Shown: positions 4,697 through 20,375 of the stretch, in pieces
Numbering within the stretch: the stretch's first letter is position 1
Layout: each line of letters starts with the position of its first letter
Assembly: GCF_044324785.1 (NCBI RefSeq)
Contig: NZ_CP172127.1
DNA from: Escherichia coli
GTDB lineage: Bacteria; Pseudomonadota; Gammaproteobacteria; Enterobacterales; Enterobacteriaceae
Direction: 5' to 3' (one strand)
Length of the DNA stretch: 64,000 nucleotides
Program-made: the position numbers and the translations under genes
The notes under the pieces: model-generated
Told to the model about the DNA's origin: nothing
What the model saw: the letters and a program-made list of their open reading frames with translations, nothing else
The model's database searches: none

Positions 4697-5641
4697 ATGA
4701 GTCCTGATAATATCGGTTCGGCTGTCAATCGCTTCTTAGGTTGGCCATCTAATGATCCTCTAAAAACAGATAACGAATCAATGACATCACCCGTGACTGT
4801 GCAGGTAATAAAGATGATTGCCGCCATCCTTGACCCACATCGGATAGTCGTTGGAATCGATACACTTTATACAACGCAGCGCGAAACATTTACCTCAGAG
4901 AGTCAACAGCTCATTGAATCAGCATTGCAAACACTTCATGTGATGAATTTAAATAACCTGGAAACAAATCTCGATGAGGAAGGTCACTATCTGGCTTTTG
5001 GATATAACGTTGACACTCCTGACAGAATAACCGTTTCTGCTTATAATGAAAAAAAGCCTGGCTGCTATGGTCAATGTCTTTTAATACAGGATGACGAAAC
5101 AGACTTATTTAACCTGATAAAAGTTAAAATTTTTGAAACCAGGCATAATTATGTCGCTCAATTGATGAGCGATCCGGAATTTATGTTCAAATTTAGTTAT
5201 AGCGCTCAACAAAATAGATTAGAACCTCATCTTCTGGTTCCCACTTATTTCCCTCTAAAAACAAACGAACCGGTTACGCAAGAGGATGTACTGTTACTTT
5301 ATCGTTTCTTTAAAATGGATGGTGATTTTAATATATTAACATCAGATGAATACATGAGTATCATGACACCTCTGATGAAGTGTGAGCGCAGCATCCACGA
5401 CCACAACAGGTATGTGACGGGCAAAGATACCCTTCTTCTGGACTATCCTCCTTCTGGTAACCAGATATATTTCCATATTTTTCCTGACGAATCAGCAACA
5501 CTAGTCCTTTATTTTTCAAACAATGACATTGAATGTTTCGTCTTTGAAAGAGATATTCCGAGCCAGTATCGCTTTTTCAAAATGTTTACCAATCTGGCAC
5601 TGGTTATTGATCAGTTAACCGATGCCAATCAAATACTTTAA
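4697..5641 (+). CDS. Hypothetical protein, 314 aa, AT-rich, no recognisable domain
   Basis: Long ORF with GAGG upstream of the ATG; markedly AT-rich versus flanking core genes; no signal peptide, P-loop or other motif I recognise. Confidence 0.6.
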   Translation: MSPDNIGSAVNRFLGWPSNDPLKTDNESMTSPVTVQVIKMIAAILDPHRIVVGIDTLYTTQRETFTSESQQLIESALQTLHVMNLNNLETNLDEEGHYLAFGYNVDTPDRITVSAYNEKKPGCYGQCLLIQDDETDLFNLIKVKIFETRHNYVAQLMSDPEFMFKFSYSAQQNRLEPHLLVPTYFPLKTNEPVTQEDVLLLYRFFKMDGDFNILTSDEYMSIMTPLMKCERSIHDHNRYVTGKDTLLLDYPPSGNQIYFHIFPDESATLVLYFSNNDIECFVFERDIPSQYRFFKMFTNLALVIDQLTDANQIL

Positions 5642-5721
5642 TTTTTATATATTCCCTGTGGCAAATATTGCTAAACAATGCCCGGGGATTAATTTTTATT
5701 ACTCACGGAAAGATTTAAATA

Positions 5722-6144
5722 ATGATCCCATCTCAAATCTCTTTCAACACCCTTCCTGTCAATGCAACATACGCTTCAGAGACAACAGTTGACACACAAA
5801 AATTCTCTGACATCCTCTACTCAGCGGGGTGTTCCCTAAAGGATCTGGCTTATCTGAGCAGATGTCTGGCATCAATACATCCGACTATCGCCAAAAACAT
5901 TTATGAAACAGAAAATCTCAGCGATCAAAAATTACTGCATATTGATTGCCGTAGTACAAATGAAATCAAGATAAATATCTTTTTTGGTCAACAACGAGAA
6001 GGATTAATTGAAATTAATTCTGACACTGTCATTTTTCCGATATTGTCTTCATTAATTGACTCCGCCATTTCTAAATTTCAACACCAAATCCCCGTTAACG
6101 GTTCAGTAAATCCTGACCTATTGTATGAGGATTATACTGATTAA
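5722..6144 (+). CDS. Hypothetical protein, 140 aa, AT-rich, no recognisable domain
   Basis: ORF 80 bp downstream of 4697-5641 on the same strand with the same AT-rich composition; Ser/Thr-rich N-terminus (MIPSQISFNTLPVNATYASETTV...). Confidence 0.5.
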   Translation: MIPSQISFNTLPVNATYASETTVDTQKFSDILYSAGCSLKDLAYLSRCLASIHPTIAKNIYETENLSDQKLLHIDCRSTNEIKINIFFGQQREGLIEINSDTVIFPILSSLIDSAISKFQHQIPVNGSVNPDLLYEDYTD

Positions 6145-6691
6145 ATCCCTCCTGTCGCGAAAAATGGCCTGCGTTATTGCCAGACGTAATAAAACTTTTG
6201 ATTAACGTTACTCGTACTGGTAGCACCTTCATGTACTTTTCTTTTTTACGAAAAATCAAAAGAGCTAACAAAGGTCATAATTCGCATGAATCATTAATTA
6301 TTTGTTATTTTCAACATTATTTTTACATTAAGCAGAGATGAATTGCAGTGAAATTCGACTTAACTTTTATGAAATGCATTTACTCATGGCTAAAGCCACG
6401 TCACAAAAATGCAAATTAGAAGTTGATCACAATTATCTCAATACATCAAATCAAGTTAATTTTAAAAATTTAACATTCATGACATTAGTTGACATAACAC
6501 ACTGAATTAAAATGATAATTTGAAAACACACTTTAAACAATCATTTCCCGAAAGACATTTTGAAAATAGATCAATTGCAACATTACGGTCAGATAAAGAC
6601 ACTCCTGTGATATTAAACCTGTGCCGTTATGAGCGGCCATAAATACGACGTGTGTAACTTATTTTACTCTCTGTCTTACAAAGGATTACCC

Positions 6692-7141
6692 ATGAAGAAA
6701 GCAACACTTGTGATTGGCGTTATTGGCGCGGACTGCCATGCAGTAGGCAATAAAGTTCTGGACCGAGTTTTTAGCAACCATGACTTCAGAGTTATTAATC
6801 TGGGCGTAATGGTCAGCCAGGACGAATATATTGATGCTGCCATTGAAACTGGTGCTGACGCGATTGTCGTCTCCTCTATCTATGGGCATGGCGATATCGA
6901 TTGTCTGGGCATGCGCGAACGCTGCATCGAGCGTGGGCTGGGTAACATCCTGCTCTATGTGGGCGGTAACCTGGTGGTCGGAAAACATGACTTCGCTGAC
7001 GTGGAAACCAAGTTCAAAGAGATGGGATTTGATCGCGTCTTTTCCCCAAGTCATGACTTAGAAGATGTTTGTCAGCTGATGGCCCACGATATCAACCAAC
7101 GTCATGACGTTGATACTCGCATTCTTGAAGAGGCAATCTGA
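6692..7141 (+). CDS. glmS: Glutamate mutase (methylaspartate mutase) S subunit, B12-binding
   Basis: [24 protein letters not shown]... carries the cobalamin-binding DxHxxG-type motif and resembles clostridial GlmS/MutS; start at the internal Met with an AGGA RBS rather than the ORF-track start at 6629. Symbol follows clostridial nomenclature, not glucosamine-6-P synthase. Confidence 0.9.
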
Positions 7142-8529
7142 TGCAAATCGTCTCTGTCGATATTGGATCGACGTGGACCAAAGCAGCCCTCTTCACCCGG
7201 GAGGGGGACGCGTTAACGTTGGTTAACCACGTTCTGACCCCAACCACCACCCATCATCTGGCGAAGGGGTTTTTCTCCAGCCTGGACCAGGTGTTAAACG
7301 TAGATAATGCCCTCCCCCTGTTAAACAGTGGTGAGGTTGCATTGAAGTATTCCTCCTCTGCCAAAGGTGGGCTGGCGGTTGCCGCAATGGGATTGGTGCC
7401 TTCTATCACCCTGGAAACCGCGAAAGTAACCGCTCACTCTGCGGGGGCTAAAATTGCGCAATATTACGCCTACAAGCTGAACCGCCGTGATATCCAGGCA
7501 CTGGAAGAAACGCAGCCCGATATTCTCTTGTTCACCGGCGGCACCGACGGCGGAGAAGAAAGCTACGGCCTGAATAACGCCCGTGTGCTGGCAGAATCCA
7601 AACTCGACTGCGCCATTATTTATGCCGGAAACCGGGATATTCAGGACGAGGTGCAGGAGATCCTAGGGCATAAAGACCTGACCATCGTCGACAATGTTCT
7701 GCCCGATCTTGACCATCCGAACCCTTTAGCTGCACGCCAGGCTATCTGCGACATATTCCTTAAACGCATCGTTAAAGGGAAAGGGCTGGATGTCGTTGTT
7801 GATAAAACAGGCGAAGAACCAATGCCGACACCGTGGACAGTCTTTGAACTGGTTAAGGCAATCAGTAATGTCGATCACAGCTGGAAAGAGTTCATGCTGA
7901 TCGACATGGGTGGCGCAACCACCGATGTCTATTCCGCCTGTGCCAACACGCTCTCGCCCGACACCGTTTTACACGGCGTACCGGAACCCTTCGTGAAACG
8001 GACGGTGGAAGGCGATCTGGGAATGCGCGTCTCGGCAATGGTGGTTGGTGAAAGTGCGAAAGAGTTAGTCAATGTGAATTTTGCTCAGCAACCCGCACAG
8101 CTGGACGCTTTTTATCATTACCTCCGTCATCTAGTCGCTCATCCCGACTACTTACCCGCGAATGCAGAAGAAAAATATTTCGATACCGTCCTGGCCGGAC
8201 TGTGTGTGGGTTATGCCACCGAAAGACATGCGGGCACCAAAAAAGAGGTCTGCACCTGCGTCGGCAATGTCGATTTACAGATGGGACGTGACCTGACAAC
8301 CGTGCGTAAAGTCGTCGGATCCGGCGGATGGCTCTCGCGTGCCAGTCAGTTCGATATGCATCACTGGTTGAAATACCGCGAGTTAAACGACGACGGTAAA
8401 CGCATTCTCTTACCGACCGAATTTGAATATTACCGCGATTCCCGGGGGCTATTACCACTGCTGGCAAACGTCGCCAGAGTCGATCCACTGGCCGCCGCGC
8501 GCACCAGTATTCAATGCTTAACCCTATAA
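7141..8529 (+). CDS. glmL: Glutamate mutase-associated GlmL/MutL-type protein (actin-like ATPase family)
   Basis: 462 aa ORF between the S and E subunit genes, as in clostridial glmS-glmL-glmE; N-terminus [18 protein letters not shown] typical of the sugar-kinase/actin fold; ATGA overlap with glmS. Confidence 0.8.
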   Translation: MQIVSVDIGSTWTKAALFTREGDALTLVNHVLTPTTTHHLAKGFFSSLDQVLNVDNALPLLNSGEVALKYSSSAKGGLAVAAMGLVPSITLETAKVTAHSAGAKIAQYYAYKLNRRDIQALEETQPDILLFTGGTDGGEESYGLNNARVLAESKLDCAIIYAGNRDIQDEVQEILGHKDLTIVDNVLPDLDHPNPLAARQAICDIFLKRIVKGKGLDVVVDKTGEEPMPTPWTVFELVKAISNVDHSWKEFMLIDMGGATTDVYSACANTLSPDTVLHGVPEPFVKRTVEGDLGMRVSAMVVGESAKELVNVNFAQQPAQLDAFYHYLRHLVAHPDYLPANAEEKYFDTVLAGLCVGYATERHAGTKKEVCTCVGNVDLQMGRDLTTVRKVVGSGGWLSRASQFDMHHWLKYRELNDDGKRILLPTEFEYYRDSRGLLPLLANVARVDPLAAARTSIQCLTL

Positions 8530-8547
8530 CAATTAAGGCTGCAATCA

Positions 8548-9993
8548 ATGGAACTTCGAAATAAGAAATTAACCCATGACGAATTCATGACCGAGCGGCA
8601 ACAGGTACTGAAAACCTGGGAAACCGGCAAGGATGTTGAAAACTTTGAAGATGGCGTTAAATACCAACAAACCATTCCTGAGCATAAACGCTTCTCTCTT
8701 GCGCTGTTGAAAGCAGACAAGGAAGGTAAAACCCTTAGCCAACCGCGCGCAGGTGTGGCGCTGATGGACGAACACATCGAACTACTGAAAACACTACAAG
8801 AAGAGTGCGATCTGCTGCCGAGCACCATCGATGCATATACCCGTCTGAATCGGTACGAAGAAGCGGCTGTAGGGATTAAAAAATCCATCGAAGCCGGAAC
8901 CTCTAAACTGAACGGTTTACCGGTAGTTAACCACGGCGTCGCAGCTTGCCGTCGCCTCACCGAAACTTTGCAAAAACCGCTACAGATCCGCCACGGCACG
9001 CCAGATGCGCGTCTGCTGGCTGAAATCTCGATGGCCAGCGGCTTTACCAGTTATGAAGGCGGCGGCATTTCCTACAATATTCCGTATGCCAAGCGCGTAA
9101 CGCTGGAAAAATCGATCCGCGACTGGCAGTACTGCGACCGTTTAATGGGGATGTATGAAGAACACGGGATCCGCATCAACCGCGAACCGTTTGGCCCACT
9201 AACGGGTACGCTGATCCCGCCGTTTATCTCGCACTCTATCGCGATAATCGAAGGATTACTGGCGCTGGAACAGGGTGTGAAATCTATCACCGTTGGTTAT
9301 GGACAGGTCGGCAGCCTGACGCAGGATGTTGCGGCGATCCAGTCTCTGCGTGAACTTGCACATGAATACTTTCAGAGCTATGGCTATACCGACTATGAAT
9401 TAAGTACCGTGTTTCACCAGTGGATGGGCGGCTTTCCGGAAGACGAATCGAAAGCGTTCGCTATTATCTCCTGGGGCGCAGCCGTCGCGGGGATGTCTGG
9501 TGCCACCAAAGTCATCACCAAAAGTCCGCACGAAGCCTGGGGTATCCCGACTGCCGCTGCCAACATTCAGGGGCTGAAAGCCTCCCGCCAGATGCTCAAC
9601 ATGGTCAATGAGCAGAAATTCCCGCCGTGCCCTGCGGTTGAACTGGAAATTGAACTGATTAAGAGCGAGGTTCGCGCGGTACTGAATAAAGTGTTCGAAC
9701 TGGGTAATGGTGATATTGCGCGCGGTACGGTGCTGGCATTTGAAGCGGGCGTACTGGATGTGCCGTTTGCGCCAGCCGCCTGCAACGCGGGCAAAATTCT
9801 TCCGGTCCGTGACAACACCGGCGCAATACGCGTACTGGAAGCCGGAGCCGTTCCATTGCCAAAAGATATTCTCGACCTCCACCACGATTACGTTGCGGAA
9901 CGCGCACGCTTTGAAGGACGCCAACCGACATTCCAGATGGTTGTAGATGACATCAATGCTGTATCCCACAGTAAATTAATAGGAAGACCATAA
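8548..9993 (+). CDS. glmE: Glutamate mutase (methylaspartate mutase) E subunit
   Basis: 481 aa ORF, size and position of the catalytic E subunit; adjacent to the S subunit and methylaspartate ammonia-lyase. Confidence 0.9.
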   Translation: MELRNKKLTHDEFMTERQQVLKTWETGKDVENFEDGVKYQQTIPEHKRFSLALLKADKEGKTLSQPRAGVALMDEHIELLKTLQEECDLLPSTIDAYTRLNRYEEAAVGIKKSIEAGTSKLNGLPVVNHGVAACRRLTETLQKPLQIRHGTPDARLLAEISMASGFTSYEGGGISYNIPYAKRVTLEKSIRDWQYCDRLMGMYEEHGIRINREPFGPLTGTLIPPFISHSIAIIEGLLALEQGVKSITVGYGQVGSLTQDVAAIQSLRELAHEYFQSYGYTDYELSTVFHQWMGGFPEDESKAFAIISWGAAVAGMSGATKVITKSPHEAWGIPTAAANIQGLKASRQMLNMVNEQKFPPCPAVELEIELIKSEVRAVLNKVFELGNGDIARGTVLAFEAGVLDVPFAPAACNAGKILPVRDNTGAIRVLEAGAVPLPKDILDLHHDYVAERARFEGRQPTFQMVVDDINAVSHSKLIGRP

Positions 9994-11234
9994 TGAAAAT
10001 AAAACAGGCTCTGTTCACCGCTGGCTACTCCTCATTCTATTTCGATGACCAGCAGGCGATAAAAAACGGAGCGGGTCATGACGGCTTTTTTTATACCGGG
10101 GAGCCAGTAACACAGGGGTTTAACGCCGTACGTCAGGCCGGGGAGTGCGTATCGGTACAGTTGATTCTGGAAAACGGCGCGGTCGCTGTAGGTGACTGTG
10201 CTGCCGTACAGTATTCCGGGGCAGGTGGTCGCGATCCACTGTTCCTCGCAGAGCACTTTATTCCGTTCCTCAACGACCATATTAAGCCATTACTGGTAGG
10301 CCGCGATGTAGATGCTTTCCTGCCGAATGCCCGTTTCTTCGACAAATTGCGTATTGACGGCAACTTGCTACATACCGCCGTACGCTACGGATTATCACAG
10401 GCGCTGCTTGATGCTACCGCGCTGGCAACCGGCCGTCTGAAAACTGAAGTGGTCTGTGATGAATGGCAGTTGCCACGCGTGGCGGAATCCATTCCATTAT
10501 TTGGTCAGAGCGGGGACGATCGATATATCGCCGTCGATAAGATGATCCTTAAGGGCATCGACGTGCTGCCCCATGCACTGATTAATAACGTCGAAGAGAA
10601 ACTGGGCTTTAAAGGTGAAAAACTGCGCGAATATGTCCGCTGGCTGTCGGATCGTATTCTGAGCAAGCGCACCAGCGCACGCTACCACCCTACCCTGCAC
10701 ATCGATGTATACGGCACTATCGGTCTGATCTTCGATATGGATCCGCTTCGCTGTGCGCAATACATCGCCAGCCTGGAAAAAGAAGCGCAAGGCCTGCCGC
10801 TCTACATTGAAGGGCCGGTCGATGCCGGTAACAAGACCGATCAAATTCGCCTGCTGACCGCGATTACCAAAGAGCTGACGCGCCTCGGTTCCGGCGTGAA
10901 AATTGTGGCCGATGAATGGTGTAACACCTACCAGGATATTGTTGATTTCACTGATGCCGCCAGTTGCCACATGGTGCAAATCAAAACCCCGGATCTGGGC
11001 AGTATTCACAACATCGTCGATGCAGTTCTTTATTGCAACAGCCACAGCATGGAAGCGTACCAGGGCGGCACCTGCAATGAAACTGATGTCAGTGCCCGCA
11101 CCTGTGTCCACGTCGCCCTTGCCGCTCGCCCCATGCGTATGCTGGTAAAGCCAGGGATGGGCTTTGACGAAGGCCTCGATATCGTCTTCAACGAAATGAA
11201 TCGTACTATCGCGCTGTTGCAGGCTAAGGATTAA
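9993..11234 (+). CDS. mal: 3-Methylaspartate ammonia-lyase (beta-methylaspartase)
   Basis: 413 aa enolase-superfamily-like ORF, 1-nt overlap with the glmE stop; size and context match methylaspartate ammonia-lyase. Confidence 0.88.
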   Translation: MKIKQALFTAGYSSFYFDDQQAIKNGAGHDGFFYTGEPVTQGFNAVRQAGECVSVQLILENGAVAVGDCAAVQYSGAGGRDPLFLAEHFIPFLNDHIKPLLVGRDVDAFLPNARFFDKLRIDGNLLHTAVRYGLSQALLDATALATGRLKTEVVCDEWQLPRVAESIPLFGQSGDDRYIAVDKMILKGIDVLPHALINNVEEKLGFKGEKLREYVRWLSDRILSKRTSARYHPTLHIDVYGTIGLIFDMDPLRCAQYIASLEKEAQGLPLYIEGPVDAGNKTDQIRLLTAITKELTRLGSGVKIVADEWCNTYQDIVDFTDAASCHMVQIKTPDLGSIHNIVDAVLYCNSHSMEAYQGGTCNETDVSARTCVHVALAARPMRMLVKPGMGFDEGLDIVFNEMNRTIALLQAKD

Positions 11235-11237
11235 CAA

Positions 11238-12608
11238 ATGGCTCGTTCTTTTAAAGTCTTATCGCCAACGGCAATCCTCGGGTATGGATTCCCGGAAGAG
11301 AGCTTCCGCAAAGCGATGGCAGAATCGCCCGATCTGATCGCCGTTGATGCAGGCTCTTCCGATCCAGGCCCCCACTACCTCGGGGCGGGCAAACCGTTTA
11401 CCGATCGCGCAGGGGTCAAGCGCGATCTGCGCTATATGATCACCGCAGGCGTTCAAAATAATATACCGGTGGTGATCGGAACGGCCGGCGGTTCTGGTGC
11501 CGCTCCACACCTGGAGTGGTGCCGAGAAATAATTCATGAGATTGCCCGGGAAGAGCACCTCTCGTTCTCGATGGCGCTGATCCCAGCAGACGTTGACAAA
11601 GCCATCGTCCACCAGGCGCTGGATAACGGCAAAATCACGGCGCTGGATTTTGTCCCGCCGTTAACCCACGACGCGATTGACGAAAGTACGTATATCGTCG
11701 CGCAAATGGGCATCGAACCCTTCCAGCGGGCGCTGAAAGAAGGCGCGCAAGTGGTGCTGGGCGGGCGCGCTTACGACCCGGCCTGCTTTGCTGCGCTACC
11801 GATCATGCAAGGCTTTGATGAAGGTCTGGCGCTGCATTGCGGGAAAATCCTTGAATGCGCGGCAATCGCCGCAACGCCCGGCTCAGGCTCTGACTGTGCG
11901 ATGGGCATCATTGATGACAACGGCTTTACGCTGAAGACATTTAATCCGAAGCGTAAATTTACCGAAACGTCAGCAGCTGCACACACACTGTATGAGAAAT
12001 CCGATCCCTACTTCCTGCCAGGACCTGGCGGCGTGTTGAACCTGAAAGGCTGCACATTTAAAGCGGTCAATGACGGCGAAGTGTACGTCAGCGGTTCTAA
12101 GCATGAAGAAACGCCGTATGCCCTGAAACTGGAAGGTGCGCGACGGGTGGGCTTCCGCTGTCTGACCATCGCCGGAACGCGCGACCCGATCATGATCGCC
12201 GGGATCGATAAAATCATCGATGAAGTCAAAACCAGCGTTTCGCGTAACCTGTCGCTCGACGATGACAGCATTCGCATCAATTTCCACCTGTACGGCAAAA
12301 ACGGGGTGATGGGCGACCATGAACCGATGCAAACTGCCGGGCATGAGCTGGGGATTGTCCTAGATGTAGTTGCACCGACCCAGGAAATTGCCAACAGCGT
12401 TTGCTCGCTGGTGCGCTCTACTATGCTGCACTACGGCTATGAAAACCGCATCGCTACCGCAGGCAACCTGGCGTTCCCGTTCTCCCCTTCTGATATCCAG
12501 GGCGGGCCAGTATACGAATTTTCCATATATCACCTGATTGAAGCCAACGACGCTCTGCGTTTTGATTTCCATATTGAACAGGTGACGCCAGAAGGAGTTC
12601 AGGCATGA
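11238..12608 (+). CDS. Uncharacterised protein, 456 aa (possibly AtuA/DUF1446-like)
   Basis: ORF 4 bp downstream of mal, same strand and GC content as the cluster; family assignment is from memory of architecture only. Confidence 0.7.
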   Translation: MARSFKVLSPTAILGYGFPEESFRKAMAESPDLIAVDAGSSDPGPHYLGAGKPFTDRAGVKRDLRYMITAGVQNNIPVVIGTAGGSGAAPHLEWCREIIHEIAREEHLSFSMALIPADVDKAIVHQALDNGKITALDFVPPLTHDAIDESTYIVAQMGIEPFQRALKEGAQVVLGGRAYDPACFAALPIMQGFDEGLALHCGKILECAAIAATPGSGSDCAMGIIDDNGFTLKTFNPKRKFTETSAAAHTLYEKSDPYFLPGPGGVLNLKGCTFKAVNDGEVYVSGSKHEETPYALKLEGARRVGFRCLTIAGTRDPIMIAGIDKIIDEVKTSVSRNLSLDDDSIRINFHLYGKNGVMGDHEPMQTAGHELGIVLDVVAPTQEIANSVCSLVRSTMLHYGYENRIATAGNLAFPFSPSDIQGGPVYEFSIYHLIEANDALRFDFHIEQVTPEGVQA

Positions 12609-12922
12609 AACAGTCAATTGTCTCACTGGCGCAAGTCATTCGTTCGAAAAATGCCGGACCTTACGAACTGGTTTTAGATATTTTATTTAAAACCAAAGAA
12701 AACTATGAGCGAGTTAAATCATCAGGGCAATTAACCCCAGAACTGATTGCGCGCTTATATCATGTTGAACCTGACTTTATTCACCGTATTGTCTGGTTTG
12801 ATCCTTCTAACGCAGTAAAAATCGTCATGCCACGAGATATTATCTCCGGGAATGTAGGTGACAATGATGTCTATGGTGCACAGCAACATGCACCTTTATT
12901 AAATATGAGTTTCGATTTGTAA
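12605..12922 (+). CDS. Uncharacterised small protein, 105 aa (possibly DUF4387-like partner)
   Basis: ORF overlapping the previous stop by 4 nt (translational coupling). Confidence 0.6.
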   Translation: MKQSIVSLAQVIRSKNAGPYELVLDILFKTKENYERVKSSGQLTPELIARLYHVEPDFIHRIVWFDPSNAVKIVMPRDIISGNVGDNDVYGAQQHAPLLNMSFDL

Positions 12923-13000
12923 AAATCCGAACATTTTTAGCCAACTGACATCCCGTCACTTATTGCAGTTCAACACTTCAGCTATTTGTAAGGTTGTAAT

Positions 13001-13040
13001 AGCAGGTAGATGCCTGAATCTCTATTCGGGCATCTACTTC
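13001..13040 (+). other. Stem-loop (GTAGATGCC...GGCATCTAC) between the enzyme genes and the symporter gene
   Basis: 9-bp perfect inverted repeat read directly, followed by a pyrimidine-rich stretch; possible internal terminator or attenuator. Confidence 0.3.
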
Positions 13041-13082
13041 TCCTGATTCTGATTTATCGCCGTGCACCTGATGGAGGAAAAA

Positions 13083-14363
13083 ATGAAGAAAATAAGTTTA
13101 ACCACGATGATTCTTTTGGCGCTGGTACTTGGAATGATTATCGGCGTAGTGCTCAATAACACTGCTTCACCGGAAACCGCAAAACTCTATGCGCAAGAAA
13201 TATCGATATTCACGACGATTTTCTTACGACTGATAAAAATGATTATCGCTCCGTTAGTGGTCTCTACCCTGGTGGTAGGTATAGCTAAAATGGGCGATGC
13301 CAAAGCCCTTGGTCGTATTTTTTCTAAAACACTCTTTTTATTTATTTGCGCCTCATTGCTGTCAATTGCCTTAGGCTTGATAACAGTAAATTTCTTCATG
13401 CCAGGCACAGGAATTAATTTTGTTGCACACGGAGCCGAAACCACCGGAGTGGTCGCGTCAGAACCCTTTACGCTAAAAGTATTTATTTCGCATGCTTTCC
13501 CCACCAGCATTGTCGATGCCATGGCGCACAATGAAATTTTGCAAATCGTGGTGTTCTCAATTTTCCTCGGCTGTAGCCTGACGGCGATTGGCGAGAAAGG
13601 CAGCGCCATCGTTCACGCCTTAGATTCGCTGGCACATGCCATGTTAAAGCTCACTGGCTACGTCATGCTCTTCGCTCCCCTGACCGTATTCGCTGCTATT
13701 TCAGCATTGATTGCTGAACGAGGACTGGCAGTTATGGTGAGCGCCGGGATCTTTATGGGTGAATTTTATTTCACCATGTTATTACTTTGGGTGCTGCTTA
13801 TCGGTCTGGCCATCGTTTATGTCGGCCCCTGCATCAGACGCCTGACCCGCGCCCTTTCGGAACCCGCCCTGCTGGCATTTACCACATCCAGTTCTGAAGC
13901 GGCTTTTCCGGGAACGCTTGAAAAACTGGAGCAATTTGGCGTTTCCCCCAAAATTGCCAGCTTTGTCTTACCCATTGGCTACTCATTTAATCTCGTTGGA
14001 TCAATGGCCTACTGCTCCTTCGCCACAGTTTTCATCGCCCAGGCCTGCAATATCCATTTATCCATCGGTGAGCAAATCACCATGCTGTTGATCCTGATGT
14101 TGACCTCGAAAGGAATGGCTGGCGTACCACGCGCCTCAATGGTGGTTATCGCCGCCACGCTCAACCAGTTCAATATTCCGGAAGCGGGGCTGATCTTGCT
14201 GATGGGCGTTGATCCGTTCCTTGATATGGGGCGTTCCGCGACAAACGTCATGAGCAACGCAATGGGCGCTGCGATGGTGAGTCGGTGGGAAGGCGAACAT
14301 TTCGGCGAGGGCTGTCGGGGTAAAGCATTAAAACCCAATGAATCGAACGTTGCTCTGCCCTGA
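13083..14363 (+). CDS. Dicarboxylate/amino acid:cation symporter (DAACS, GltP-like); likely glutamate uptake
   Basis: About 426 aa polytopic membrane protein; start placed at the ATG preceded by GGAGG (ORF track starts at 13062). Confidence 0.85.
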   Translation: MKKISLTTMILLALVLGMIIGVVLNNTASPETAKLYAQEISIFTTIFLRLIKMIIAPLVVSTLVVGIAKMGDAKALGRIFSKTLFLFICASLLSIALGLITVNFFMPGTGINFVAHGAETTGVVASEPFTLKVFISHAFPTSIVDAMAHNEILQIVVFSIFLGCSLTAIGEKGSAIVHALDSLAHAMLKLTGYVMLFAPLTVFAAISALIAERGLAVMVSAGIFMGEFYFTMLLLWVLLIGLAIVYVGPCIRRLTRALSEPALLAFTTSSSEAAFPGTLEKLEQFGVSPKIASFVLPIGYSFNLVGSMAYCSFATVFIAQACNIHLSIGEQITMLLILMLTSKGMAGVPRASMVVIAATLNQFNIPEAGLILLMGVDPFLDMGRSATNVMSNAMGAAMVSRWEGEHFGEGCRGKALKPNESNVALP

Positions 14364-14470
14364 GGGGGATCTTAAGCAATCAGAAGCCAATGACTACGCA
14401 TTTTTATAAGCCGGATCATGAAGTTAGACGGCAATTAAGTAACACTAACGTTTAAGGTGAAAAGTGAAAT

Positions 14471-16123
14471 ATGTCCAAACCATTTATCTGGCAAGAACCG
14501 TTTCTACAAAATAAAGACGGTACAGAATATACATTAATTAGCGATCAACATATTACAGTAACGGAATTAGACGGCGAAGAAGTGATAAAAATCGCTCCTG
14601 AAGCATTAACGCTGCTTGCCCGGCAGGCATTTTATGAAGCCTCTTTTTTCTTACGTTCCGCTCATTTGCAACAGGTCGCCAGCATTCTTAACGATCCGCA
14701 GGCCAGTAGTAATGATAAATACGTTGCGTTGCAGTTATTACGTAATGCTGAAGTCTCAGCAAAAGGGGTATTACCCAACTGTCAGGATACCGGCACCGCA
14801 ACTATTGTTGCCAGTAAAGGGCAACAGATATGGACCGGAGGTAACGACGCCGAAGCCTTAAGCAAAGGCATTTACACCACTTTTCAGGAAAATAATCTGC
14901 GCTTTTCACAAAATGCGCCACTGGATATGTATACCGAAGTCAATACGCAAACCAATCTACCGGCGCAGATTGATATCAGCGCCGTCGCTGGTGATGAGTA
15001 CCATTTTCTCTGTATTAATAAAGGGGGCGGCTCTGCCAATAAAGCCGCGCTTTATCAGGAAACAAAATCCCTATTGCAACCAGAAAAACTGACCGCATTT
15101 TTAATCGAAAAAATGAAATCGCTGGGCACCGCTGCCTGCCCGCCTTACCACATCGCCTTTGTCGTCGGAGGGCTTTCAGCCGATCAAACCTTAAAAGTTG
15201 CCAAGCTGGCCTCAACGAAATATTACGACAATTTGCCCACCAGCGGAAACGCGCAGGGACAAGCATTCCGTGATATTGAGTTGGAAAAAGCGTTGCTCAA
15301 CGCCAGTCAGCAATTTGGTATTGGTGCGCAATTTGGGGGTAAATATTTCGCTCATGATATTCGCGTCATTCGTCTGCCGCGTCACGGTGGCTCTTGCCCG
15401 ATAGCTATGGCGCTCTCCTGTTCTGCCGATCGCAATATCAAAGCAAAAATTAACAAGCACGGTATCTGGCTGGAAAAACTCGTACACAATCCGGGGCAAT
15501 ATATTCCAGCCTCACTGCGGGAAGAAAATCACCCGCAACATGTACAGCTGGATCTAAACCGTCCGTTGCGTGACGTGATGCAGGATCTCGCCAGATTACC
15601 GGTAGGCACCCGCGTGTCGTTAAATGGTCCCATCGTAGTGGCGCGCGATATCGCCCACGCCAAAATAAAAGCGCGGCTGGATAGCGGCGAACCGATGCCG
15701 GATTACCTGAAGCATCATATTGTCTATTACGCTGGCCCGGCGAAAACACCTGAGAACATGGCCTGCGGTTCACTGGGTCCAACCACGGGTGGACGAATGG
15801 ACGGTTATGTCGATACCTTCCAGGCGGTTGGCGGCAGTCTGGTGATGTTATCGAAAGGTAACCGCAGCCAGCAGGTCACCGATGCCTGTCACAAACATGG
15901 CGGCTTCAATCTGGGAAGTATTGGCGGTGCAGCAGCGTTACTGGCGCAAGAATATGTCAAAAGTCTGCGTTGCCTGGAATACCCGGAGCTGGGTATGGAA
16001 GCGGTGTGGATGATGGAAGTGGAAAATCTGCCCGCATTCATCCTGGTAGATGATAAAGGCAATAATTTCTTTAGTCAGTTTGAGCAGCAACACCGCTGCG
16101 CCAGTTGCCCTGCGGGACATTAA
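14471..16123 (+). CDS. Class I (Fe-S) fumarate hydratase paralogue; candidate mesaconase
   Basis: 550 aa ORF co-linear with the FumA/FumB family ([11 protein letters not shown]..., GSCP and CxxC motifs); located inside the methylaspartate cluster. Confidence 0.9.
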
Positions 16124-16132
16124 GGAAAATGA

Positions 16133-16735
16133 ATGGAAGCGCGAATTTCAACTGAACGGCATGTGCAGCGCCAGCAGAAATTGAAGGAACAGGTCGATAC
16201 GCGCGTCGCGGCGGCGATAGAGAAAAAAGGGATCTTGATTGTTTTCACCGGCAACGGCAAAGGGAAATCCACTGCCGCGTTTGGTACTGTGACGCGCGCG
16301 GTGGGTCATGGCAAAACGGTGGGGGTTGCGCAGTACATCAAGGGGCAATGGGACAACGGCGAATACAACCTTCTCCAGCCGCTGGGGGTTGAGTTTCATA
16401 TTATGGGAACCGGTTTTACCTGGGAGACACAGAACCGGCAAGCGGATATCGACGCGGCGAAAGAGGTCTGGTCGGAAAGCAAACGGATGCTGGCTGACAA
16501 GCGTTACGACTTAGTGGTGCTTGATGAGCTGACCTATATGCTGGCTTACCATTATCTGGACACCGAAGAAGTGATCGCTTCTCTGCAAAACCGCCCGGCA
16601 CAACAAAGTGTCATTGTCACCGGACGCGGTTGCCACAGTCAGATATTAAAAATGGCGGATACGGTCAGCGAAATCCGCCCCGTCAAACATGCTTTTGATA
16701 ACGGCATTCAGGCGCAGCCGGGTATCGACTGGTAA
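16133..16735 (+). CDS. Corrinoid (cob(I)alamin) adenosyltransferase, BtuR/CobA family
   Basis: 200 aa ORF with P-loop VFTGNGKGKSTAAFG; strongly resembles BtuR; would supply adenosylcobalamin to glutamate mutase. Confidence 0.9.
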   Translation: MEARISTERHVQRQQKLKEQVDTRVAAAIEKKGILIVFTGNGKGKSTAAFGTVTRAVGHGKTVGVAQYIKGQWDNGEYNLLQPLGVEFHIMGTGFTWETQNRQADIDAAKEVWSESKRMLADKRYDLVVLDELTYMLAYHYLDTEEVIASLQNRPAQQSVIVTGRGCHSQILKMADTVSEIRPVKHAFDNGIQAQPGIDW

Positions 16736-16738
16736 TAA

Positions 16739-16765
16739 CTGCGCCTGGCATCCCGCCAGGCGCAG
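16739..16765. terminator. Bidirectional stem-loop between convergent adenosyltransferase and LysR genes
   Basis: CTGCGCCTGGCATCCCGCCAGGCGCAG palindrome read directly. Confidence 0.5.
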
Positions 16766-16768
16766 GTT

Positions 16769-17674
16769 TTACATCTCCTGCGGTACGACCGATTTCGCCA
16801 GCAACCATTCACGAAATTGCTGCAAGTGCGGCGAGTCAGACTTCTCTTCCTGCCACGTCATAATAAAACGATTACCGGTACGAATAGGCACATCACAGGG
16901 AATCACCATATCGCCACTATCCAAATCATGTTGAATAGCGAACCGTGGTAACAGCGCCACGCCGAGATTAGAGCGCACGGCGGCAATCAGCATTGAAAGC
17001 AAATCGAAACGTGGTCCGTTGTTGACCAGCGGACTGCTAACGCCAGATAAGGCAAACCACTCTTCCCAGCCAGTAATACGGGTACTTTGATGCAGAAGTG
17101 GTAACTCTGTAAGCAGTTCTGCCACTGACAGTTTTTGATCGGACATTGCAAGCAAACTGCCGCTGCATACCGGCAAAATCTCTTCTTCAAAGAGATATTC
17201 TACTTCCGCCCAGGGCGCGCAAAAATTTTCGCGCATAATGACAGCATCGTACTCCCGATTAAGAAAATCGCCGTTATTAGCTAAAGAGTGAATATTAACA
17301 ATAATATCGGGATGTAACTTTGTGAATTCATGTAAATTTGGGATTAACCAGTGGGTACTAAACGTAGGATTCACGGCAAGTTCAATAACCTGAACCGTAG
17401 GCTGCCAGGTCATAATGGTATTGGTATCGCGTTCCAGCTTATTTAATGTTTCTTTTACTATCCCCAGGTAATACTTCCCTGCATCATTAAGAAAAATACG
17501 TTTTTTAGAGTGTGAAAATAACGGAGTATGTAAAAATTCCTCCAGCGCACTCACTTGTCTGAATACTGCACTTTGGGTTAACGCTAACTCCTCTGCCGCT
17601 CTGGTATAACTTTCATGACGTGCGACGACCTCAAAAGTCACCAGCAGTTCCGTTTTAGGTATTTTCCCTCGCAT
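16769..17674 (-). CDS. LysR-family transcriptional regulator
   Basis: 301 aa ORF with N-terminal HTH (...YTRAAEELALTQSAVFRQVSALE...) and LTTR-type C-terminal domain. Confidence 0.9.
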   Translation of the reverse strand: MRGKIPKTELLVTFEVVARHESYTRAAEELALTQSAVFRQVSALEEFLHTPLFSHSKKRIFLNDAGKYYLGIVKETLNKLERDTNTIMTWQPTVQVIELAVNPTFSTHWLIPNLHEFTKLHPDIIVNIHSLANNGDFLNREYDAVIMRENFCAPWAEVEYLFEEEILPVCSGSLLAMSDQKLSVAELLTELPLLHQSTRITGWEEWFALSGVSSPLVNNGPRFDLLSMLIAAVRSNLGVALLPRFAIQHDLDSGDMVIPCDVPIRTGNRFIMTWQEEKSDSPHLQQFREWLLAKSVVPQEM

Positions 17675-17943
17675 AATGCCGTCCCTTAAAAATAGTTTAA
17701 ACCATCAAAAATACATTACTTATTACGAAGTAATGGTAACCAAAGCAGCAATAAATAATTTATAAGAATCATGATTGACATTTATAACCCAGTAAGCCTG
17801 GCGTGACAAATATCTTAATCAGATAATAATAATCCGAAAAGCACAGCGCCTTTCGAATTATCCGGAATCACATTAAGTGAAAATTATTAAATTGATATCA
17901 TTTATCATATCTGTGGATATTATGATAAACAATCAACAAAGAT

Positions 17944-18187
17944 TTTATTTTTGATTTATAGCATATCCCTCTAAGAATTTTTGCGATGCTGCAATATCCG
18001 GGGTAAAGACCCGATCCTGGCTGACAAATGGCACGACTTGACGATAAGCGGTGAACATCGCTTTTGTTGATTTACTTAACGCTACGGTCAAACGCTGGGA
18101 AGCCAGTGCATCAGGTAACGATTCGAAATTCGCCGTCGTTCTTATTCGTGGCTTGCGGTCGGTTGCGGCAATCCACAGTGGCTGTGG
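17944..18187 (-). pseudogene. Possible 3' gene remnant (about 80 codons open, no convincing start)
   Basis: Manual minus-strand translation: ...PLWIAATDRKPRIRTTANFESLPDALASQRLTVALSKSTKAMFTAYRQVVPFVSQDRVFTPDIAASQKFLEGYAINQK*; only an internal ATG; sits at the island/sucD boundary. Confidence 0.25.
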
Positions 18188-18236
18188 TCATGCAGTCAAG
18201 CCAGCGGTCAGATTTCGACCGTGGTTAACGTTTAAG

Positions 18237-18339
18237 GCATAAAAAAGGCCATCATACGATGGCCAACCATGTCGAAACCGACAGCCCTTCGCCATTCCTG
18301 TAGAGGGAAGCGGCGAGGGCTATTTCTTATTACAGATAT
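18237..18339 (-). ncRNA. sdhX: sucD 3'UTR-derived sRNA SdhX (RybD) with intrinsic terminator
   Basis: Directly after the sucD stop on the minus strand; ends in hairpin GGCCATCGTATGATGGCC plus T-tract (18241-18264); identity with SdhX is from memory of the K-12 3'UTR. Confidence 0.4.
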
Positions 18340-19209
18340 TTATTTCAGAACAGTTTTCAGTGCTTCACCGATATCCGCCAGGCTGCGAACGGTTTTCACG
18401 CCTGCGGCTTCCAGAGCAGCGAATTTCTCATCCGCAGTCCCTTTACCACCGGCAATGATGGCACCTGCGTGACCCATACGTTTGCCTTTCGGCGCAGTCA
18501 CACCAGCGATGTAACCCACAACTGGCTTGGTAACGTGCTCTTTGATGTACGCAGCCGCTTCTTCTTCAGCGCTACCGCCGATCTCACCGATCATCACGAT
18601 CGCTTCGGTCTGCGGATCTTTTTCGAACATTTCGAGGATGTCGATAAAGTTAGAGCCAGGGATCGGGTCGCCGCCGATACCAACACAGGTCGACTGACCG
18701 AAACCGTAATCCGTGGTCTGTTTAACCGCTTCATAGGTCAGTGTACCGGAACGGGAAACGATACCCACTTTACCCGGTTTGTGAATGTGACCAGGCTGGA
18801 TACCGATTTTGCATTCACCCGGAGTGATAACGCCTGGGCAGTTCGGGCCGATCATGCGAACGCCCGCTTCATCCAGTTTCACCTTCACGGTCAGCATATC
18901 CAGCGTCGGGATGCCTTCAGTGATGGTGATAATCAGTTTGATGCCTGCATCGATAGCTTCCAGAATGGAGTCTTTGCAGAACGGTGCTGGTACGTAGATA
19001 ACAGAAGCGGTAGCGCCAGTAGCAGCAACAGCTTCACGCACGGTGTTGAACACCGGCAGGCCGAGGTGGGTAGTACCGCCTTTACCTGGGGTTACGCCGC
19101 CAACCATTTTGGTGCCGTATGCAATGGCCTGTTCAGAGTGGAAAGTCCCCTGGCTACCGGTAAAGCCCTGGCAGATAACCTTGGTGTTTTTATCAATTAA
19201 AATGGACAT
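18340..19209 (-). CDS. sucD: Succinyl-CoA synthetase alpha subunit
   Basis: 289 aa ORF ([33 protein letters not shown]...). Confidence 0.97.
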
Positions 19210-20375
19210 TATTTCCCCTCCACTGCGGCAACAACCTGCTGAGCTGCATCCGTCAGACCTTTTGCTGCAATAATATTCAGGCCGCTGTCAGCCAGTTTCT
19301 TCGCGCCGAGTTCGGCGTTGTTACCTTCCAGACGTACCACGACCGGTACGTTAACACCCACTTCCGCTACCGCGCCGATGATACCGTCAGCGATCAGGTC
19401 GCAACGAACGATACCGCCGAAAATGTTAACCAGAACGGCTTTCACTTTGTCGTCAGAGAGGATGATTTTGAACGCTTCGGTTACACGTTCTTTGGTTGCG
19501 CCGCCGCCAACGTCCAGGAAGTTAGCTGGTTCGCCGCCGTGCAGTTTAACGATGTCCATGGTGCCCATCGCCAGACCTGCGCCGTTAACCATACAACCGA
19601 TGTTACCGTCCAGCGCAACGTAGTTCAGTTCCCACTGTGCAGCCTGTGCTTCACGCGGATCTTCCTGCGACTGGTCACGCATTTCGCGCAGATCAGGCTG
19701 GCGGAACAGTGCGTTGCCGTCAGCGCCCAGTTTGCCGTCGAGGCAAATCAGATCGCCCTGTTTGGTGATGACCAGCGGGTTGATTTCGATCAGCGCCAGG
19801 TCGCGCTCCAGGAAAATGGTCGCCAGGCCCATGAAGATTTTGGTGAACTGCTGAACCAGTTTACCTTCCAGACCCAGTTTGAACGCCAGCTCGCGTCCCT
19901 GATATGGCATCGGGCCAGTCAGCGGATCAAGCGCAACTTTGTGGATCAGGTGCGGAGTTTCTTCCGCCACTTTTTCGATTTCCACGCCGCCTTCGGTGGA
20001 GGCCATAAAGACCACACGACGGGAACTACGGTCTACAACGGCACCGAGATACAGCTCTTTAGCGATATCGGTCGCTGCTTCAACCAGAATCTGGTTAACC
20101 GGTTGGCCATTGGCATCTGTTTGATACGTTACCAGACGCTTGCCCAGCCAGTTTTCTGCAAAAGCACGGATGTCTTCTTTGCTGTTTACAACTTTCACAC
20201 CGCCCGCTTTACCGCGGCCACCAGCGTGAACCTGACATTTCACTACCCACGGACCGGCACCGATTTTTGAAGCGGCTTCTTCTGCTTCGCGCGGAGTAGT
20301 ACAGGCATAACCCACCGGTGCTGGTAAGCCATAGCGGGCAAAAAGTTGTTTTGCCTGATATTCATGTAAGTTCAT
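19209..20375 (-). CDS. sucC: Succinyl-CoA synthetase beta subunit
   Basis: 388 aa ORF ([18 protein letters not shown]...), 1-nt overlap with the sucD start. Confidence 0.97.

Follow-up and report, generated by a model that had tools for sequence, protein, structure and literature searches.

A coupled AtuA/DUF4387 gene pair in the Escherichia coli methylaspartate operon is predicted to encode a two-subunit citramalate lyase

What becomes of citramalate in E. coli O157:H7 was left open in 2015, when the citrate, isocitrate and methylisocitrate lyases were found to give no citramalate lyase activity and the gene here called cmlA was listed as coding for a protein without a known function (Kronen & Berg 2015). 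In the window analysed here (the whole 64,000-nucleotide stretch of E. coli contig NZ_CP172127.1), two overlapping ORFs, cmlA and cmlB, lie inside a methylaspartate operon. A preliminary description of this DNA had recognised a mutase, an ammonia-lyase and a hydratase candidate in the cluster and no obvious citramalate lyase, and had proposed that the pair supplies the missing step or, alternatively, acts as a chaperone or repair function for the radical enzyme. Its account of the cluster is accurate, in that glmS, glmL, glmE and mal lie upstream of the pair and a transporter gene, fumD and cobO downstream, and tblastn with E. coli queries detected no homologue of CitC, D, E, F, X or G within the window.

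The ORF list and the raw sequence agree with that description on two ORFs of 456 and 105 aa that overlap by 4 nt, with the cmlB ATG at 12605-12607 and the cmlA TGA at 12606-12608. The adjacency to mal also holds, but the spacing does not: the mal TAA occupies 11232-11234 and cmlA starts at 11238, which leaves 3 nt in between, the previously given 4 having counted the start position. Compared with Klebsiella michiganensis, dN/dS was 0.036 for cmlA and 0.069 for cmlB, in the same range as the values for mal (0.033) and glmE (0.042), and both genes are under strong purifying selection. Because each has a Shine-Dalgarno site (Table 1), a Pfam match and a low dN/dS, cmlA and cmlB are genuine genes and not chance ORFs, and 1122 E. 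coli records carry both of them intact. Translational coupling of the two genes favours 1:1 synthesis of the complex, beside which can be set the equal chain numbers in the crystals of the orthologous enzyme (PDB 9ERQ and 9EVF, released in October 2025, each with two A and two B chains).

Table 1. Features of the methylaspartate operon and its flanks (positions in the window)
Feature	Coordinates	Strand	Description	Basis
Candidate sigma-70-like promoter, 5' of glmS	6489..6516	+	TTGACA-16-AATGAT, 10 of 12	Consensus scan
glmS	6692..7141	+	Glutamate (methylaspartate) mutase subunit S, step 1	RefSeq annotation, orthologous E. coli locus
glmL	7141..8529	+	MutL-type accessory/reactivating protein of glutamate mutase	RefSeq annotation
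glmE	8548..9993	+	Glutamate mutase subunit E	RefSeq annotation
mal	9993..11234	+	3-Methylaspartate ammonia-lyase, step 2	PDB matches
cmlA Shine-Dalgarno AAGGA	11226..11230	+	Within last mal codons, 7 nt before ATG	Seen in sequence
cmlA	11238..12608	+	Predicted citramalate lyase large subunit, 456 aa, ATG start	AtuA/DUF1446 family
cmlB Shine-Dalgarno GAAGGAG	12591..12597	+	Within cmlA, 7 nt before ATG	Seen in sequence
cmlA/cmlB ATGA start/stop overlap	12605..12608	+	Translational coupling	Seen in raw sequence
cmlB	12605..12922	+	Predicted citramalate lyase small subunit, 105 aa, ATG start	DUF4387
Dicarboxylate/amino acid:cation symporter (GltP/DctA-like)	13083..14363	+	Likely glutamate importer	NCBIfam, RefSeq
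fumD	14471..16123	+	Class I fumarase/mesaconase, forming (S)-citramalate from mesaconate (step 3)	
cobO	16133..16735	+	Cob(I)yrinic acid a,c-diamide adenosyltransferase (adenosyl-B12 for mutase)	
Intrinsic-terminator-like hairpin after cobO	16739..16765	+	Strong, 11 bp, 9 GC	
LysR-family regulator	16769..17674	-	Convergent with operon	RefSeq annotation

We found that CmlA matches the Pfam family AtuA (PF07287/DUF1446; E 6.7e-19, 68.4 bits), with residues 63-394 aligned to model positions 61-397 of 437, and that CmlB matches DUF4387 (PF14330; E 2.9e-39, 134 bits), with residues 6-101 aligned to positions 2-97 of 98. The Pfam search for these two families, which had been suggested beforehand, thus matched both members of what had been taken for an AtuA-like large protein with a small partner. 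CmlA matches AtuA alone, without the enolase-superfamily domains MAAL_N and MAAL_C, and the weakness of that match (68 bits) indicates a distinct, divergent subfamily. Pfam detected no P-loop or other known nucleotide-binding domain in CmlA, and neither the MutL domain PF13941 nor any CitCDEFXG-type domain in either protein; neither of the two is covered by an NCBIfam model, and PADLOC gave no match. Many database entries label CmlA '3-methylaspartate ammonia-lyase', a mislabel that has been noted before (PMC4682846).

Both proteins match, over their full length and with no indels, the chains of a crystallised enzyme from Raoultella planticola/Klebsiella: CmlA the A chains of 9ERQ and 9EVF, 'Citramalate lyase, subunit A (cmlA)' (E 1.2e-292, 92.3% identity), and CmlB 9ERQ_B and 9EVF_B, 'subunit B (cmlB)' (E 5.2e-57, 84.6% identity). 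Substitutions number 35 in CmlA and 16 in CmlB. Of the approximately 150 CmlA columns that are invariant among 33 orthologues, not one is touched by the 35 differences from 9ERQ_A. The invariant residues of CmlB are R13, S14, K15, N16, P19, D25, F65, K72, R77, S81, D88, Y90-G-A-Q-Q-H95 and P97. The Raoultella/Klebsiella enzyme has the same architecture of a 456 aa AtuA-type and a 105 aa DUF4387 protein, the same operon order (mal-cmlA-cmlB-transporter-fumD-cobO) and the same ATGA overlap; the present pair differs in lying on an Escherichia-type chromosome and in being known here from sequence.

The Raoultella pair also has a function in vivo. On its own it enables E. coli to make acetyl-CoA from mesaconate: an acetyl-CoA auxotroph grew on mesaconate only with a cmlAB plasmid, and labelling confirmed the passage of carbon into acetyl-CoA (bioRxiv 10.64898/2026.01.16.699985). 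E. coli K-12 is without the island at the syntenic site, and the complementation therefore needs no other island gene. Orthology to the crystallised enzyme, that enzyme's binding of citramalate or pyruvate and of an adenine nucleotide, the in vivo function in Raoultella and co-conservation with glm and mal together lead us to conclude that cmlAB very probably encodes a two-subunit citramalate lyase, needing neither CoA nor acyl-carrier protein, for the last step of the methylaspartate pathway, by which enterobacteria ferment glutamate. The catalysis predicted here, (S)-citramalate to pyruvate and acetate, is carried over from the Raoultella/Klebsiella orthologue. The earlier suggestion that cleavage of citramalate, the step missing from the cluster, falls to this pair is upheld by this combination of 92% and 85% identity with the orthologue's function, and the gap left in 2015 would be filled; the accompanying remark that such an architecture lacks an established biochemical function became outdated when the PDB entries were released in October 2025. 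The function of CmlAB as such is already known from those entries and from the 2026 preprint, while a full-text literature search did not find a primary description of the enzyme.

The rest of the operon would provide a complete route to citramalate. The GltP-like carrier would import glutamate, which GlmS and GlmE would convert to methylaspartate, reactivated by GlmL and provided with adenosyl-B12 through CobO; Mal would deaminate methylaspartate to mesaconate, FumD would hydrate mesaconate to (S)-citramalate and CmlAB would split (S)-citramalate into pyruvate and acetate. The assignments of these neighbours are of differing strength. Mal matches the ammonia-lyases of Citrobacter amalonaticus (PDB 1KKO, E 4.8e-269) and Clostridium tetanomorphum (1KCZ, E 7e-150). 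FumD scores 1274 bits against NCBIfam NF011921, above the cut-off, and the FumD of E. coli O157:H7 has been characterised as a mesaconase (PMC4682846). CobO is likewise above the cut-offs of TIGR00708 and NF004637, and the symporter matches the GltP/DctA models of NCBIfam at E 1e-90 to 1e-93, under their curated cut-offs. The longest ORF for glmS begins at 6629, and the annotated start corresponds to 6692. As for control of the operon, the promoter candidate is weak, promoter-like sites not being enriched over shuffled sequence in the glmS region, and a search of 3800-18400 against Rfam at E up to 1 gave no match, so that the leader contains no riboswitch, whether for B12 or of another kind. 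The hairpin after cobO likely marks the end of the operon, in common with the convergent LysR gene, which is a candidate regulator of the operon; a LysR family is kept beside the cluster in 19 loci.

To place the pair in a wider context, we surveyed the neighbourhoods of 80 cmlA loci from many phyla (1.32 Mb in total). In 79 of them cmlB is the next gene downstream of cmlA, with a 4-nt overlap in 38 of the 79 and a gap of 30 nt or less in 71. mal is found 5' of cmlA in 71 of the 80 loci; a FumD-like gene is present in 36 and glmE in 64, so that the neighbourhood check set beforehand gave strong co-conservation with glutamate mutase. tblastn for CitCDEFXG returned zero matches across the 80 loci, while all four clostridial glm-mal clusters examined contain MesAB and CitDEF without an AtuA gene. 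A natural fusion of CmlB to GlmS and the AtuA-DUF4387 fusions of fungi also speak for the assignment. Because CitDEF is missing from the 80 loci and occurs without AtuA in the four clostridial clusters, CmlAB and CitDEF represent a case in which non-orthologous enzymes replace each other at a single step of the pathway. The two systems were mutually exclusive in every cluster examined. CitDEF with CitC, X and G, of the Clostridium tetanomorphum type, likewise converts (S)-citramalate, in net terms, to pyruvate and acetate, from the same place at the end of glm-mal-mesaconase clusters, but has no sequence or fold relationship with CmlAB. It needs an ACP with phosphoribosyl-dephospho-CoA, an acetyl-thioester cycle and three maturation proteins, whereas CmlAB consists of two proteins and a bound adenine nucleotide. 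The citramalyl-CoA route (succinyl-CoA:citramalate CoA-transferase and citramalyl-CoA lyase) also splits citramalate into C3 and C2 units, but requires CoA activation and yields acetyl-CoA; the CmlAB operon encodes no homologues of its enzymes, and the genes of this route are missing from most enterobacteria (Kronen & Berg 2015).

Two other functions were considered for the pair, and both are very improbable. The first is that of a chaperone, repair or reactivation factor for glutamate mutase, a radical B12 enzyme; the tight co-conservation of the pair with glmS and glmE, the fusion of CmlB (DUF4387) to GlmS and the binding of nucleotide are all compatible with a reactivase. The crystals, however, hold citramalate and pyruvate and not mutase components, cmlAB alone brings about the conversion of mesaconate to acetyl-CoA in a host that is without the glutamate mutase island at the syntenic site, and the loci with cmlAB are exactly complementary to those with CitDEF, not to those with MutL. 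The reactivase role is already covered in every cluster by glmL, which carries the MutL domain PF13941 in orthologous clusters, and the chaperone proposal of the preliminary description is effectively refuted. Action on another intermediate, as a citramalyl-CoA-forming CoA-transferase or ligase, a second mesaconase or an acyclic-terpene (Atu) enzyme with no part in glutamate catabolism, is hinted at by the Pfam name AtuA, by the UniRef label 'CaiB/BaiF family enzyme' on some fungal fusion homologues and by the ammonia-lyase label on CmlA, but no Pfam or NCBIfam match links CmlA or CmlB to the families of CoA-transferases, ligases, MAAL or fumarases, and the cluster has a mal and a mesaconase gene of its own besides the pair. 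The AtuA match is weak, and between cydA and mngB the annotation of the orthologous E. coli locus lists no atu gene (for example for a carboxylase or an acyl-CoA dehydrogenase). CoA-transferase, MAL and mesaconase identities for CmlAB were rejected for want of a domain match.

How such a lyase could work without a thioester is suggested by the titles of the two PDB entries, 'Citramalate lyase - AMPPNP - citramalate complex' and 'Citramalate lyase - ADP - pyruvate complex', from which we predict that the present pair binds an adenine nucleotide (AMPPNP or ADP) together with substrate or product. We speculate, at somewhat short of even chances, that bound ATP is a catalytic cofactor, with a transient acyl phosphate replacing the thioester, a mechanism read solely from the pairs of ligands in these titles. 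Citramalate would receive the gamma-phosphate of ATP on its C4 carboxylate, the carbanion at C3 would be stabilised by the acyl phosphate while the C2-C3 bond is cleaved, and acetyl phosphate would return the phosphate to ADP, giving pyruvate and free acetate as net products. The nucleotide in CmlAB would thereby stand in for the acetyl-S-ACP thioester of the classical CitDEF lyase. In ATP-citrate lyase, too, a beta-hydroxy acid is activated at its carboxylate by ATP, by way of a citryl-phosphate intermediate, before the C-C bond is cleaved, but that enzyme goes on via citryl-CoA and consumes ATP; the likeness is one of mechanistic analogy only, with no sequence or fold similarity to CmlAB.

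Two other roles for the nucleotide deserve consideration, each of which we judge unlikely, at roughly one chance in four. ATP may be a true co-substrate, citramalate and ATP giving pyruvate, acetyl phosphate and ADP, with acetate kinase or phosphotransacetylase elsewhere recovering ATP or making acetyl-CoA. That AMPPNP accompanies the substrate in the crystals, and ADP the product pyruvate, is the pattern of a reaction from ATP to ADP, and an acetate-derived product is missing from the title of the product complex. On the other hand, the gene families that recur as neighbours in the 80 loci include neither ack nor pta, and the preprint gives pyruvate and acetate as products and describes a requirement for Acs up-regulation for growth and a suspected inhibition by high acetate, which fits free acetate (bioRxiv 10.64898/2026.01.16.699985). 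Equally, the nucleotide may be a structural or allosteric ligand, with citramalate cleaved by a direct acid/base, possibly metal-assisted, retro-aldol reaction via an acetate carbanion. The reaction has been described as a direct cleavage to acetate (bioRxiv 10.64898/2026.01.16.699985), and a set of acid/base residues (D37, D42, D63, H91, R177, D180, H200, K203, E206, C207, H249 and E253) is invariant family-wide. Among these residues are those of the H-x-G-K-x-x-E-C segment of CmlA, which we take to recall, loosely, the catalytic Cys loop of isocitrate lyase. Isocitrate lyase carries out a comparable direct retro-aldol cleavage, with succinate.

CmlAB provides the first concrete biochemical function for the AtuA/DUF1446 and DUF4387 families, whose members mostly carry annotations as unknown or terpene-utilisation proteins, or the mistaken name methylaspartate ammonia-lyase. 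An 'AtuA family protein plus DUF4387' beside mal can accordingly be renamed CmlA and CmlB, the subunits of citramalate lyase. A lyase for citramalate that takes only two genes and needs no CoA, ACP or maturation is already in use in synthetic pathways (bioRxiv 10.64898/2026.01.16.699985). We further raise, tentatively and as somewhat doubtful, the proposal that a tightly bound, catalytic ATP and a transient acyl phosphate, in place of the thioester of CitDEF or CoA-dependent lyases, constitute a new mode of C-C cleavage next to a carboxylate that applies across the AtuA/DUF4387 family, though much of this new-chemistry reading may already be contained in the publication behind 9ERQ and 9EVF. 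If true, the chemistry would cover fungal fusions, the paralogous pairs that occur in catabolic clusters of other kinds, and AtuA itself, which would be the long-disputed acetate-releasing lyase of terpene degradation.

AtuA of terpene utilisation shares the Pfam family PF07287 with CmlA, and 43 residues, the acid/base set included, are invariant between CmlA orthologues and seven distant AtuA-family members, a comparison from which the canonical Pseudomonas and Thauera AtuA proteins were left out. We know of no biochemical demonstration of AtuA activity. The reaction tentatively assigned to it also frees acetate from a tertiary beta-hydroxy acid, and the Thauera protein has 615 aa (PMC4847356); the length of AtuA proteins, approximately 600 aa, fits a fused AtuA and DUF4387, as in the fungal homologues in which AtuA-DUF4387 domain fusions exist. 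The two differ in that AtuA has a CoA-ester substrate and an atuB-H context, whereas CmlA belongs to a glmSLE-mal-cmlAB-transporter-fumD-cobO operon, and an atu cluster (geranyl-CoA carboxylase AtuC/F, AtuD and AtuE) is absent from around cmlAB at this locus.

Within E. coli, the operon is present in 1117 of 5426 complete genomes, approximately one fifth, O157:H7 among them. Beyond the methylaspartate clusters, cmlAB occurs at five loci with no glm or mal within 10 kb (three in Shewanella and one each in Accumulibacter and Desulfospira), and use of the enzyme therefore extends beyond glutamate fermentation; a check of these standalone pairs for alternative pathway partners showed unrelated genes around them, for HrpA, MalQ, a protease and an RND efflux system. 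In non-enteric clusters, an uncharacterised, highly conserved P-loop protein is encoded right after cmlB. Two hypothetical ORFs 5' of glmS were ruled out as its counterpart by tblastn and HMM search, and in the non-enteric bacteria this P-loop protein could be a further component.

The preliminary description had placed two overlapping ORFs directly after mal, and both the ORF listing and the raw sequence agree with this. The upstream 413-aa ORF (9993..11234) ends in TAA and cmlA begins 3 nt further on, a trivial difference from the 4 bp given in that description, which is otherwise accurate. Among complete E. coli records, 1122 carry both genes intact, and the dN/dS of the two against Klebsiella michiganensis (cmlA 0.036, cmlB 0.069) is indistinguishable from that of mal (0.033) and glmE (0.042). 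cmlA and cmlB are real genes. The GC content of cmlB is 38.7% versus 55.5% for the overlapping cmlA; this deficit is about 12 points in most Enterobacterales loci (7–15 points over all of them) and small in GC-rich Betaproteobacteria, and it may reflect amino-acid composition or relaxed codon constraint.

Coordinates of features in the window and, where a locus handle precedes them, in loci of other genomes
Feature	Coordinates	Strand	Details
Hypothetical ORF	4697-5641		314 aa; no NCBIfam/PADLOC match
Hypothetical ORF	5722-6144		140 aa; no NCBIfam/PADLOC match
Spacer before glmS	6145-6691
Promoter-like site	6489-6516		upstream of glmS
Shine-Dalgarno AAGGA of cmlA	11226-11230	+	7 nt before ATG, within preceding gene
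cmlA	11238..12608	+	ORF, 456 aa, ATG start
Shine-Dalgarno GAAGGAG of cmlB	12591-12597	+	7 nt before ATG, within preceding gene
ATGA overlap, cmlA stop / cmlB start	12605-12608	+	sequence read
cmlB	12605..12922	+	ORF, 105 aa, ATG start
Hairpin, 15 bp, perfect or near-perfect	13005-13038		GGTAGATGCCTGAAT-CTCT-ATTCGGGCATCTACT; in 160-nt spacer, cmlB to transporter gene
Strong terminator-like hairpin	16739-16765		3' of cobO
Island edge	16769-24502		LysR gene to suc genes
P-loop protein, conserved	L034:11694-12647; L024:9857-10780; L080:4532-5446		~310 aa; plus 34 other loci
DUF4387 (CmlB)-GlmS natural fusion	L082:9001-9753; L083:3990-4742		250 aa; six cluster members

A PDB sequence search with both window proteins returned full-length matches (E 1.2e-292 for the cmlA product, E 5.2e-57 for the cmlB product) to entries 9ERQ and 9EVF, whose chains are named 'Citramalate lyase, subunit A (cmlA)' and 'subunit B (cmlB)' and alternatively labelled 'Acyclic terpene utilization AtuA family protein' and 'DUF4387 domain-containing protein', respectively. 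Identity to these chains is 92.3% for CmlA (35 substitutions, no indel) and 84.6% for CmlB, a match in sequence that we regard as decisive for the identity of the pair. The entries, titled 'Citramalate lyase - AMPPNP - citramalate complex' (9ERQ, released 2025-10-22) and 'Citramalate lyase - ADP - pyruvate complex' (9EVF, released 2025-10-08), show that the enzyme is an A–B complex that binds an adenine nucleotide along with citramalate or pyruvate. Each has two copies of chain A and two of chain B, from which it follows that CmlA and CmlB form a 1:1 complex. An E. coli acetyl-CoA auxotroph carrying a plasmid with the Raoultella cmlAB pair grew on mesaconate only while the plasmid was present, isotope labelling traced carbon of mesaconate to acetyl-CoA, and Acs was up-regulated in the auxotroph, capturing acetate (bioRxiv 10.64898/2026.01.16.699985). 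Earlier work had shown FumD to be a mesaconase, had detected no citramalate lyase activity in E. coli O157:H7, leaving the fate of citramalate open, and had described the 'DUF1446' gene 3' of mal as coding for a protein whose function was not known, often mislabelled methylaspartate ammonia-lyase (Kronen & Berg, PMC4682846). On every testable criterion the pair agrees with a citramalate lyase of the CmlAB type. The structural matches, the preprint and the co-conservation described below thus support the proposal that the pair supplies the missing citramalate-cleaving step; the observation is confirmed, its function having already been established by others, with structures in October 2025 and the enzyme in use in 2026.

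Scanning one genome per species, we obtained 80 loci encoding CmlA at 57–92% identity, from Enterobacterales, Betaproteobacteria, Alphaproteobacteria, Shewanella, Desulfobacterales, Myxococcota, Riflebacteria, Aminicenantes/Acidobacteriota, Spirochaetes, Lentisphaerae, Chloroflexi, Planctomycetes and Firmicutes. CmlB is encoded directly downstream in 79/80 loci, the lone exception stopping at a contig edge; the two genes overlap by 4 nt in 38/79 and lie at most 30 nt apart in 71/79. The expected co-conservation with glutamate mutase and mal was borne out, with Mal upstream in 71/80 loci (in 4 of the 9 loci lacking a mal match, the sequence upstream of cmlA spans <1.3 kb), GlmE in 64, GlmS in 57, GlmL in 56 and a FumD-like protein in 36. 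Five pairs at 57–68% identity, in Shewanella (L060, L075, L078), Accumulibacter (L029) and Desulfospira (L064), have no glm or mal gene within 10 kb, and their neighbours are unrelated (HrpA helicase, M4 protease, MalQ, RND efflux, corrinoid methyltransferases). These standalone pairs suggest that citramalate comes from another source, or that pathway genes lie elsewhere in the genome.

No homologues of CitC, D, E, F, X or G were found in the window or across the 80 cmlA loci (1.32 Mb). The four clostridial-type mal clusters examined (C. tetani, C. scatologenes, Hathewaya, Oceanirhabdus) all have the order GntR-glmS-mutL-glmE-mal-mesA-mesB-citD-citE-citF, three continuing with citC and citX and two of these three also with citG, and none of the four contains AtuA or DUF4387 genes. 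In every cluster examined, therefore, the same slot is taken by one lyase type or the other and never by both, which is the signature of non-orthologous displacement. The window pair does not match the HMMs of CitDEF-type lyases. The domain search suggested for DUF1446 and DUF4387 gave a weak match of CmlA to Pfam AtuA (PF07287, E 6.7e-19) and a match of CmlB to DUF4387 (PF14330, E 2.9e-39); the pair sits outside an atu gene cluster, and it works like the proposed AtuA action, yet is not AtuA. MAL and MutL were rejected as identities for the pair by HMM.

Direct cleavage of citramalate is difficult chemistry, since a carboxylate's alpha-carbanion has to serve as the leaving group; the classical lyase bypasses this by acting on a thioester formed at C4 with a prosthetic group that an ACP carries. 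CmlAB requires no CoA, no ACP and no maturation genes. Its substrate complex was trapped with a non-hydrolysable ATP analogue, which was needed, and its product complex with ADP, and from these ligand pairs we infer transfer of the gamma-phosphate to the C4 carboxylate. In the mechanism that we tentatively prefer, the resulting acyl phosphate would stabilise the enolate while the C2–C3 bond breaks, and acetyl phosphate would hand its phosphate back to ADP. ATP would act catalytically, and the net products would be pyruvate and acetate, matching the preprint's description; set beside that description, net formation of acetyl phosphate by CmlAB seems unlikely. A purely structural or allosteric nucleotide seems about equally unlikely. 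Comparing CmlA orthologues with distant paralogues and fungal fusions, we found D37, G39, S40, D42, D63, G84, G85, G87, H91, Q156, R177, D180, H200, G202, K203, E206, C207, H249, Y252, E253, G262-P-G264 and N410 to be invariant throughout; their conservation makes them candidate residues for binding the nucleotide and for acid/base chemistry. Residues specific to the CmlA clade (K61, W94, C95, D118, the 215-220 loop, R239, R404) may define the substrate pocket.

For the orthologous locus in E. coli, the annotation reads glmS-glmL-glmE-mal-'AtuA family protein'-'DUF4387 protein'-dicarboxylate/amino acid symporter-class I fumarate hydratase-cobO, with a LysR gene next in convergent orientation. 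Solved MAL structures back the identity of mal (1KKO, E 4.8e-269), the fumarase gene is a FumD equivalog, and cobO was likewise confirmed. The longest glmS ORF (6629-7141) has its start at 6629 (170 aa); the ATG at 6692 (149 aa, MKKATLVIG...) is backed by RefSeq annotation and by alignments of homologues. No Rfam elements were found in the operon region. The hairpin behind cmlB is followed by a moderately U-rich stretch, in a region more stable than shuffled sequence (z -2.4), and may act as a partial terminator or stabilise the mRNA, splitting the operon into two expression units. As one unit of 10.4 kb, the operon occurs at 98–99% identity in 1117/5426 complete E. coli genomes and is missing from K-12 at the syntenic sucD-cydA interval, which there holds mngR-mngA-mngB. 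The island in the window is flanked by cydAB and sucDCBA and abuts sucD directly, the LysR gene being followed by a 665-nt spacer and sucD-sucC-sucB-sucA on the minus strand; past its LysR gene, E. coli AR_0067 has an RtcB gene and mngB. In Klebsiella michiganensis sucD also lies just past the cluster, with an AraC-family gene between it and the LysR gene, and the island location therefore looks ancestral in Enterobacteriaceae. Between cydA and glmS, window positions 4000-7000 are AT-rich (32–38% GC vs 51% for the window) and include two ORFs labelled hypothetical in the E. coli annotation; this segment may be a separately acquired piece or a regulatory leader of the operon.

A P-loop gene is present in 37 non-enterobacterial loci, right behind cmlB in most and just 5' of glmS in some Firmicutes (L063, L080), and has no counterpart in the window. 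Its product carries a Walker A motif (G-x-G-K-S-T) and the conserved blocks YAPRG, FPGLELTNDD, RRVVVEHFDL, MAHSAED and CTGxRxHV; it belongs to no family in Pfam or NCBIfam, and its only resemblance in the PDB is a weak P-loop likeness to ABC ATPases. Either the nucleotide-binding lyase or the pathway could have this protein as an accessory factor.

In fungi, AtuA and DUF4387 occur as single polypeptides. Such fusions (proteins P0345, P0346, P0349, P0377, P0388 and P0355) measure ~600-735 aa, with one of 1096 aa; those with names are fungal (Tremella, Lojkania, Sporothrix, Xylariaceae), and their UniRef labels, '3-methylaspartate ammonia-lyase' or 'CaiB/BaiF family enzyme', are probably wrong. 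In one bacterial lineage DUF4387 is joined to the B12-binding GlmS, with the order AtuA-[DUF4387-GlmS]-MutL-GlmE-MAL, and these fusions reinforce the links among AtuA, DUF4387 and GlmS. The rearranged cluster, represented by L082 and L083, includes GntR next to AtuA and adjoins a phage-type integrase gene. Paralogues of AtuA/DUF4387 are many. In one locus (L084:4216-6587) a paralogous AtuA gene precedes a DUF4387-isochorismatase fusion, beside amidohydrolase, UGSC-family and TPP enzyme genes, which indicates that other catabolic pathways have recruited this module.
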